NCBI GenBank assembly: GCA_000004695.1
Contig: CM000150.2
Location: forward strand, 2,336,001 to 2,400,000
DNA length: 64,000 nucleotides
Reading direction: 5' to 3'
From: Dictyostelium discoideum
Lineage: Eukaryota
The notes beneath the pieces were generated by a model that ran no database searches, was not told the DNA's origin, and saw nothing but the letters and a program-made list of their open reading frames with translations. Position numbers and translations under genes: made by a program. Below, piece after piece: positions 35,552 through 49,174 of this stretch. Every line of letters starts with the position of its first letter. Position 1 is the first letter of the stretch.

Positions 35552-36800
35552 TTAATTAAAAAAACCATTAAAAGATAAAGAAGTATTTTTATTGAAAAAA
35601 TCATGAATATCTCTTTCTTCAGTTATATTTTTAAGTTGATGTTCCATAAGAGCAAATTCGACTAAAGCAGAAGAGAAAGACTCTGGAGTTAGAGAGGCAG
35701 CGATATTCTTTCCTTCAATGAATGGATCAGCGACATATAATACACCTTTACAATAATCATCTCTTGGATAGATACCACGAGAGATACTAATAACATCTTC
35801 ATTATAATTAAAGGTACAATAATATTGGAAGAATTTAAAAAGTAATTGACCAATGTTTAAACGATTATCAGCGGAAGTAAAATCTAAACTTGTCCAATCA
35901 TAATATTTTACAACATTATTTTCAACTCTACAATTTGCTTTTAATTTTATCTTTGTTTCATCGAAATGAAATGGTGAAGGTTCTTGAAGATTTGGTAGGA
36001 CTGGTGGTGACAACGATTGAAGGAAATGAATGATCAAATTGATTAAACAATAGGAACTAAATGATTCTTGAGAGGCATCATTTAAACATTTTGTTGAAGC
36101 CCACCATTTAATTAAAATGATGAGTGGTTTAACTCTAGAATCTACCATAGTGTAATCTTTGATTAACAAAGAATTATGTTGACCCATAAAACTATTGAAA
36201 CACATATCGAAACGAACGTTTACATCGGTATCAATGAATCTAATGATTGGTACACGAGCTTCTAAACGCGTTTCAATTAATTCATAATTTTTTTTATGTA
36301 AAAATGAAGAAACTTGTTTAATGGTACTAATATCCTCTTTTTGAGTGGTAGTAAAATTTACATCAATATCAGATTCACCCAATGATAAACCACTAAGGAA
36401 TGAACCAAAAATATTAAGTTTACCACTTGAAAAACCATCCAATAAATATTGAGTTAAACGTTTAAATGATTCTTCTTTAATTGTTTTTTTCTTACATTCT
36501 TTTGATTTTGCAATTGAGTAAAGTTTCTTTAAAGTGTTTGGAAGTGATAAACCAACTGAATAAGTTGGCTGTGATTGTTGTTGTTGTTGTTGTTGTTGTT
36601 GTTGTTGTTTTTGTTGTAAATATTTTTGATAAAGTGGGAATTTAATTAAATAATTATTAAAACAATCTCTTAATAATTTCTTATTTGCCAATACTGTTGA
36701 AGAAATAAAACTTTTATTAAATGATTGAAGTTCTTGAATAATTTCTAATAAAATCTTTGGATAATCTTGATTTGTTAAAATTTCTTGATTATTTAAAACT
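35552..36800 (-). other. Pol-beta superfamily nucleotidyltransferase plus PAP-associated domain (non-canonical poly(A) polymerase/TUTase-like) at the C-terminus of the giant protein
   Basis: GSFLSGLSLGESDIDVNF (catalytic GS...DxD), third acidic residue in VRFDMCF, and a PAP-associated-like segment near the C-terminus. Confidence 0.7.

Positions 36801-49174: not shown

Follow-up and report, generated by a model that had tools for sequence, protein, structure and literature searches.

What does a single uninterrupted open reading frame (ORF) of 13.6 kb encode in the social amoeba genome of Dictyostelium discoideum, and why would an RNA helicase and an RNA-tailing enzyme be joined in it? Helicases and RNA-tailing enzymes cooperate in RNA quality control and silencing as separate proteins, and their physical coupling is hard to study. 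The ORF lies at 35552..49174 on the minus strand of a 64,000-nt stretch of contig CM000150.2 (assembly GCA_000004695.1, positions 2,336,001 to 2,400,000; hereafter the window, meaning the whole stretch analysed), for which a preliminary description had proposed a Upf1-like helicase fused to a Cid1/GLD-2-type nucleotidyltransferase (NTase) behind nine novel repeat modules. Our results indicate, with a probability of roughly 60%, that the ORF is a genuine single gene for an RNA-processing enzyme of a dictyostelid-specific family, in which a Sen1/senataxin-like superfamily 1B (SF1B) helicase is followed by a linker and a Cid1/GLD-2-type transferase. Such a fusion could provide a one-gene handle on "unwind, then tail" in a genetically tractable organism.

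The ORF begins with ATG and comprises 4540 codons, with a predicted product of 4540 amino acids (aa) and ~520 kDa that contains nine modules, low-complexity linkers, the helicase and the NTase. Its coding frame holds one stop, the terminal one, against 261-895 in the other five frames, and at the window stop frequency of 0.078 per codon a frame would stay open this long by chance with a probability of ~1e-160. The claim of a single unbroken frame is thus upheld together with its coordinates, and the strand, which had been left unstated, is the minus strand. The G+C content of the window is ~16-33% (2-kb windows), and homopolymer-like sequence accounts for about one third of the protein. The periods of all simple and tandem repeats within the ORF are divisible by three; these repeats read on the coding strand as AAT/Asn, CAA/Gln and ACA/Thr, and the tracts are therefore coding homopolymers. 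The 495 bases 5′ of the ATG, beginning past the stop of the neighbouring gene, are A-rich and typical of A/T-rich intergenic sequence. Three overlapping ORFs, at 39748..40761 (minus), 39971..40960 (plus) and 47881..48504 (plus), were rejected as genes because they lie entirely in Asn- or Gln-codon repeats, and a second helicase or NTase copy within the window was considered and rejected.

The helicase core occupies aa 3556-3934 (37373..38509, minus strand), as placed by Pfam, alignment and model, and all of the SF1 motifs I, Ia, II, III, IV, V and VI are present, in agreement with the seven motifs first claimed. These include GPPGTGKT (aa 3578-3585) with the intact Walker A Lys K3584, VIVDEATQ (aa 3696-3703) with the Walker B pair D3699/E3700, LVGDPVQLPPT (aa 3725-3735), VQYRMHP (aa 3765-3771), FQGSEKD (~aa 3890) and RRINVSITRAKYGLFIIGN (aa 3915-3933), and the motif residues are invariant in an alignment of 25 sequences (the query and 24 relatives). 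Pfam assigned AAA_11 (E 1.6e-45) and AAA_12 (E 4.1e-56) to this region. Among the sequences of solved structures, the best matches were yeast Sen1 (6.5e-64) and Chaetomium SETX, followed by Upf1 (2e-59) and then by IGHMBP2 and DNA2, and ZNFX1 was much weaker (1.6e-24; 88.5 bits vs 219 bits for Sen1). The top relatives outside the dictyostelids in a large protein collection were plant MAGATAMA3 (~297 bits) and then fungal Sen1.

The predicted fold pointed in the same direction. An AlphaFold (AF2) model of aa 3285-3965, with a predicted local distance difference test score (pLDDT) of 83.6 and a predicted template modelling score (pTM) of 0.86, was aligned by Foldseek with Sen1 (8ram_O; E 9.7e-51, template modelling (TM) score 0.77) over ~730 columns that include the part preceding the helicase core. 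Sen1/SETX helicase domains gave TM scores of 0.73-0.79 over ~720-770 columns, Upf1 gave ~0.6, and ZNFX1 reached a Foldseek E of 1.6e-33 vs 9.7e-51 for Sen1. The pre-helicase region (aa 3286-3555; 38510..39319, minus strand), delimited from the secondary structure of the model and from Foldseek, is common to all dictyostelid fusion genes and had no Pfam match when scanned alone. Ahead of RecA1 the model shows a long helix (58-83 in model numbering) and then strands between residues 107 and 219, elements that would correspond to the stalk and the 1B barrel found in Upf1-like helicases, so that the accessory domains of this group appear to be present.

In the whole-protein Pfam scan, neither the Upf1 CH domain (PF09416; Cys/His-rich, binding Upf2) nor the Sen1 N-terminal domain (PF12726) was found; fungal Sen1 matches have the latter, and the module array occupies the position upstream of the helicase where Sen1 carries it. 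No zinc finger was matched in this same scan, which was the sole examination of zinc-finger content. By sequence and predicted fold, the helicase is best placed as a Sen1/senataxin/MAGATAMA3-like member of the Upf1-like superfamily. Because the CH and Sen1 N-terminal domains were undetected and the ZNFX1 match was far weaker, it does not qualify as an ortholog of Upf1, of Sen1 or of Hrr1/ZNFX1. The label "Upf1-like" therefore holds at the superfamily level but not for Upf1 proper, which is a weaker match than Sen1 and is distinguished by its CH domain.

The NTase spans aa ~4195-4520 (35615..36592, minus strand) according to Pfam, solved-chain matches and alignment. The Pol-beta signature noticed earlier is real: GSFLSGLSLGESDIDV at aa 4257-4272 contains G4257-S4258, D4269 and D4271, the third Asp is D4323 (in VRFDMCFN), and PF22600 matched aa 4216-4341 (E 1.3e-18); the Gly-Ser, the DxD and the third Asp are kept in five relatives. 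The suspected PAP-associated region was also recovered, as PF03828 (PAP_assoc) at aa ~4440-4468 (E 1.2e-7, 32.3 bits vs a cutoff of 22.6), which was missed by the whole-protein Pfam scan and found only when the C-terminus was scanned alone. Matches to solved chains were led by TUT4 (2e-28) and GLD2 (1.5e-27) and included URT1, CutA, TUT7 and Cid1 (2e-19), with Trf4 (3nyb) distant at 3.6e-11 vs ~1e-27 for GLD2/TUT4. A palm with Gly-Ser, DxD and a third carboxylate, combined with a PAP-associated domain, identifies the region as a probable Cid1-family non-canonical terminal nucleotidyltransferase (TENT). No catalytic residue was lost on alignment, with the third Asp and the Walker B D3699/E3700 both in place, and the proposal of one polypeptide carrying both a helicase and a Cid1/GLD-2-type NTase is confirmed with the catalytic motifs of both intact.

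The nucleotide that is added is harder to read. K4489 aligns with the His of the TUT4 motif DLNHN, a column in which GLD2 has Thr and CutA has Arg. In Cid1/TUT structures, that histidine selects UTP. With Lys in place of the uridine-selective His, at a position variable among relatives, nothing indicates a dedicated uridylyltransferase, and the implied role as a terminal uridylyltransferase (TUTase) loses its basis. Since this His is missing, A or mixed tails would be more likely than U, and the nucleotide itself is not predictable from sequence.

Conservation of the fusion in other dictyostelids, suggested at the outset as a check, was found in six further genes from four other species, each with helicase and NTase; one more gene, the D. 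purpureum ortholog, was read only to the helicase. The dictyostelid fusions are all arranged as helicase, linker and NTase, and identity in the helicase is 41-62%. The D. purpureum ortholog has no stop between its last module and the helicase, which are connected by a Tyr-rich linker, and its helicase is 55% identical to that of the window protein across the full alignment and 62% in the core common to both. A second D. purpureum gene, a paralog 7 kb upstream, contains helicase and NTase in one open frame with intact motifs; this frame has 934 codons (locus L004, 2..2800) and is annotated only as a 90-aa model (2114..2383), so that the annotation of the helicase-NTase family in this species appears fragmented. 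D. citrinum has a smaller paralog, one 2215-aa ORF with four modules, helicase and NTase and all motifs intact.

The fusion proteins of Group-2 dictyostelids (Heterostelium and Acytostelium) are ~1250-1440 aa long. Heterostelium album contains two tandem helicase-NTase genes of ~1400 aa (locus L001, 5269..14982), one of them annotated only as "Regulator of nonsense transcripts-like protein"; their helicases are 79% identical, and the pair therefore probably arose by recent tandem duplication. Acytostelium subglobosum has two helicase-NTase genes 2 kb apart (locus L005, 8001..18480), one of them SAMD00019534_099440. The two dictyostelid groups sampled span the deepest split of the dictyostelid phylogeny, and the helicase-NTase fusion, common to both, is old.

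A fusion in the reverse order was found in the Logan transcriptome assemblies SRR23162813 and SRR23162816 (loci L002/L003), where a eukaryotic protein of 1208 aa (P0103; contig G+C 0.40) carries an N-terminal Cid1-type NTase and a C-terminal Upf1-like helicase. Its opposite domain order points to an independent fusion of the same two activities. The recurrence of the fusion in other genomes thus supports functional coupling of helicase and NTase, and a pairing kept across the sampled dictyostelids and re-formed in opposite order argues that both activities have one and the same RNA as their substrate. A word-index homolog search with the NTase region alone returned one fragment, missed even the known orthologs and says nothing of how widely the fusion occurs.

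The N-terminal part of the window protein is built from nine paralogous modules of ~190 aa, each matching a joint hidden Markov model (HMM) with E 1e-53 to 1e-68; the count of nine first given was correct and the size of ~170 aa was too small (184-207 aa). All lie on the minus strand and were delimited with the joint HMM: module 1 at aa 6-201 (48572..49159; best D. purpureum match Dp_g2_m1), module 2 at aa 435-623 (47306..47872), module 3 at aa 673-856 (46607..47158), module 4 at aa 928-1134 (45773..46393), module 5 at aa 1392-1590 (44405..45001), module 6 at aa 1673-1864 (43583..44158), module 7 at aa 2002-2205 (42560..43171), module 8 at aa 2283-2472 (41759..42328) and module 9 at aa 2538-2723 (41006..41563). 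Module 4, an "FKFGGE" variant, most resembles module 3 of the gene upstream and was also marked by repeat pair D14, the one informative pair from a general repeat finder whose output at the locus was dominated by trinucleotide repeats. Module 7 is the most divergent and has no counterpart in the D. purpureum ortholog. The modules are 20-32% identical to module 1 and share the signature ILKxIF ... YP ... EFSxxYQRxxLKE ... ISIPxLK..ED.S, matched by the joint profile. An AF2 model of module 1 (pLDDT 80, pTM 0.83) has six main helices with a seventh, shorter one, a sheet of three strands and one last helix.

The modules had no Pfam match in the whole-protein scan (E <= 0.01), and a scan of all nine at E <= 1 gave scattered single-member noise. 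No relative of the module fold was found, and a word-index search with the module profile had no matches. When 1.84 billion representative proteins were searched exhaustively with this profile as an HMM, two proteins were retrieved, D. purpureum DICPUDRAFT_98522, annotated as a hypothetical protein, and a D. citrinum fragment. No module was detected in the proteins of Heterostelium and Acytostelium by hhalign with the module profile, or in their loci by an HMM scan, so that across the database search and the scanned dictyostelid loci the modules were seen in Dictyostelium species only, in keeping with the initial view that they belong to no recognised family. They appear to form an undescribed, lineage-specific and mostly helical family without detectable relatives.

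The order of the modules has been retained. D. purpureum has a modules-only gene and then a gene with eight modules, which are the best matches of window modules 1, 2, 3, 4, 5, 6, 8 and 9, in that order, at 29-38% identity between orthologous modules. The window protein has the largest array seen (nine). The array was gained within the Dictyostelium lineage, and its order has been kept at low identity. It is rare for a domain whose fold is predicted with confidence to have no relatives, in sequence or in fold, outside a single genus. The order of the modules is kept at ~30% identity in two divergent Dictyostelium species, and the array could be useful for studying the origin of new domains and the scaffolds of giant RNA enzymes.

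Contrary to what had been implied, the modules are not confined to the big ORF; three more, missed in the first reading, were located by a six-frame module-profile scan in a modules-only paralog directly upstream on the same strand (49670..53186, minus). This gene consists of two ORFs (51060..53186 and 49670..50935) joined in frame by a 112-nt intron at 50952..51063 (GTAAGA..TTTTAG), and its 1134-aa product would contain three modules and, at the C-terminus, a K/E/L-rich stretch of heptad-like character. The gene is likely the ortholog of DICPUDRAFT_98522, and the second modules of the two products are 58% identical. Between the big ORF and the modules-only gene, a 199-nt stretch (43291..43489 vs 51137..51335), made of an Asn-codon tract and a unique "NQNEIIVNP.QSNR.EPKI" segment, is 96% identical, and this identity therefore suggests a recent exchange between the two paralogs by gene conversion or duplication.

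Gln-, Asn-, Thr- and Tyr-rich low-complexity linkers separate the modules and domains of the window protein. Repeat analysis delimited a Gln/Pro-rich tract with CAA/CCA period-3 repeats at aa ~205-430 (47885..48562, minus strand). Before the helicase, a 562-aa region defined by composition (39320..41005, minus strand) is rich in Asn, Asp and Tyr (220 N, 54 D, 48 Y) and contains five F[TI]YVP motifs, at aa 2803, 3105, 3164, 3200 and 3249, four followed by G and one by A. These motifs are not kept in D. purpureum, which has ~12 Tyr-rich "G.Y[VI]EG[FY]Y" repeats at the same place instead. The ~230 residues that separate helicase and NTase (aa 3966-4194; 36593..37279, minus strand) form a flexible tether with an acidic stretch, a Thr/Ser-rich tract, a non-repetitive stretch and poly-Gln, also found by repeat analysis.

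Upf1-like helicases bind single-stranded RNA and translocate 5′→3′, and GLD-2-type NTases usually have no RNA-binding domain of their own and rely on a partner. By analogy with these enzymes, the window protein would most likely "unwind and tail" RNA at its 3′ end, the modules serving as scaffold. The helicase could load on a target RNA, strip structure or bound proteins and move towards the 3′ end, where the tethered NTase would then add a non-templated tail that might mark the RNA for decay or further processing, the helicase thereby supplying the RNA-binding partner of the NTase in cis. The pathway might be nuclear surveillance, cytoplasmic decay or small-RNA amplification. A multivalent scaffold for partners or for RNA-granule assembly may be provided by the module array, by the modules-only paralog and by the tract rich in Asn, Asp and Tyr. 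A bolder version is offered tentatively, namely that the fusion is a self-contained surveillance or silencing machine replacing multi-protein assemblies, either Sen1 of the Nrd1-Nab3-Sen1 (NNS) complex with TRAMP or Hrr1 with Cid12, and that the modules, as a new fold family that arose in Dictyostelium, build with the modules-only gene a multivalent platform that recruits targets or assembles RNA granules.

Several points weigh against a fused enzyme of this kind. The D. purpureum ortholog extends, as read, no further than the helicase, and its 3376-aa gene model looks too short to include the NTase. The residue governing nucleotide choice varies among relatives (K/N/H/R/S), and the model of module 1 was built on nine paralogs alone. 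Sen1-type helicases also act on DNA:RNA hybrids and on the transcribing polymerase, so that the substrate need not be free RNA. The neighbouring genes, encoding a WD40 protein, ELP6, a Ras-family (Rab-like) GTPase and a ComC-like protein, are unrelated, and partner, target and localisation are not readable from sequence. Two pathway models deserve comparison, one resembling the Sen1-TRAMP relay and the other the RNA-dependent RNA polymerase (RdRP) complex; the type of the helicase favours the first, and that of the NTase favours neither.

In the first model, which is rather doubtful, the protein would serve nuclear surveillance like Nrd1-Nab3-Sen1 with TRAMP, releasing nascent noncoding RNA or aberrant transcripts or resolving R-loops, after which the NTase would oligoadenylate the RNA for the exosome. 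The closest relatives of the helicase in sequence and fold are indeed Sen1/SETX and plant MAGATAMA3, and the missing TUTase histidine fits A-addition; in yeast, Sen1-dependent termination is coupled to Trf4 polyadenylation (PMC4186968). The NTase, however, is nearer to GLD2, TUT4, URT1 and Cid1 (~1e-27) than to Trf4 (3nyb, 3.6e-11), and the Sen1 N-terminal domain modelled by Pfam is missing from the protein.

In the second model, the protein would be the dictyostelid counterpart of Hrr1 plus Cid12, working with RrpA/B/C to amplify small interfering RNAs against retroelements (DIRS-1, Skipper, TRE). Dictyostelium is known to have an RNA interference (RNAi) system with RdRPs, and helicase-NTase fusions arose more than once. 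In Schizosaccharomyces pombe, helicase, NTase and RdRP act together, and Hrr1, an orthologue of ZNFX-1, works with Cid12 and the RdRP in the RdRP complex Rdp1-Hrr1-Cid12 (RDRC) (PMC9276528). The window helicase, however, is Sen1-like and not ZNFX1/Hrr1-like (219 vs 88 bits; Foldseek 1e-50 vs 1.6e-33), and the "Rosetta stone" link to Hrr1 and Cid12 drawn in the preliminary description is therefore an analogy between families, not orthology. Moreover, no RNAi gene was found in the window neighbourhood, literature searches gave no link, and proximity to tRNA-associated repeats is no evidence of a link to the gene, so that this model seems unlikely.

The array could also be ballast, that is, the N-terminal 8 kb could be a tolerated, fast-evolving repeat expansion of the sort typical for Dictyostelium genes, devoid of any specific function, with only the C-terminal ~1250 aa of importance. 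The Group-2 fusions without any module, the low identity of modules to each other and to their orthologs (20-38%) and the homopolymer-like third of the protein would all be compatible with this. Against it, eight modules stand in the same order in D. purpureum and four occur in a second paralog, in D. citrinum; a modules-only gene is kept next door in two species; the module fold is confidently predicted; and no frame disruption has occurred over 13.6 kb. Neutral expansion is accordingly an improbable account of the array. Finally, an annotation or assembly artefact, in which helicase and NTase, or modules and helicase, are separate genes that happen to share a frame, would agree with the splitting of these regions into several gene models in the D. 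purpureum annotation but is very improbable, given that 4540 codons contain no stop where ~8% are expected by chance and that continuity recurs in D. citrinum, in the paralog of D. purpureum, between the final module and the helicase of the D. purpureum ortholog and in the Heterostelium and Acytostelium gene models.

The surroundings of the gene are rich in tRNA genes, as described earlier: six flank the big ORF, and a repeated tRNA-associated element is present. Immediately downstream of the big ORF are two inverted pairs, each made of identical tRNA genes, namely tRNA-Glu UUC at 30931-31003 (plus) and 32297-32369 (minus) and tRNA-Gln UUG at 34125-34197 (minus) and 35018-35090 (plus). A 384-nt repeat, 98% identical between ~33685..34070 (minus) and ~62490..62875 (plus), starts 56-75 nt past the 3′ end of tRNA-Gln and tRNA-Lys, and its ORFs are a full one of 402 aa at 62639..63847 (plus) and a 90-aa remnant at 33649..33921 (minus). 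This repeat looks like a retroelement, perhaps TRE3-like, that targets the 3′ side of tRNA genes. An ORF of 444 aa at 54879..56213 (plus), without a Pfam match, lies ~440 bp upstream of tRNA-Asn (54364..54438, minus) where the sequence is strongly skewed towards A (AT skew of +0.32 to +0.39 between 54 and 58 kb), and could represent a further tRNA-targeted element. The tRNA-associated repeats in the flanks have no relation to the big ORF, and nothing in the sequence or among the neighbours ties the gene to the silencing or transposon-control role that had been suggested for it.

Literature searches found no paper on the window protein or on helicase-TENT fusions. With Sen1, SETX and MAGATAMA3 it shares all helicase motifs, AAA_11 and AAA_12, and the fold including the pre-helicase region (TM 0.73-0.79); unlike them, it adds a C-terminal NTase and an N-terminal module/linker region of 3285 aa, and its helicase is only 34-42% identical to those of Sen1 and MAGATAMA3 in the region compared and is without PF12726. 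With Cid1, GLD-2, TUT4-7, URT1 and CutA it shares the PF22600 palm with PF03828, the GS...DxD...D set and alignment across the whole catalytic module, whereas it differs in the Lys at the TUT4 His, in its fusion to a helicase and in that no zinc knuckles or other RNA-binding domains were seen. The S. pombe RDRC and the Caenorhabditis elegans ZNFX-1 pUG pathway likewise bring a helicase of the Upf1-like superfamily and a Cid1-family NTase to one RNA (PMC9276528), but there the two are separate proteins and the helicase is of the ZNFX1 type, whereas that of the window protein is of the Sen1 type. In yeast, Nrd1-Nab3-Sen1 and TRAMP (Trf4-Air-Mtr4) similarly provide a Sen1-dependent termination step that is coupled to, and followed by, non-canonical polyadenylation of the released RNA by Trf4 (PMC4186968), although this is a multi-protein relay, the TRAMP helicase Mtr4 belongs to SF2 and Trf4 is distant from the window NTase. 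The enzymes are of known kinds; the novelty lies in the covalent and conserved way in which they are paired, in the orphan family of modules and in the two-gene locus.

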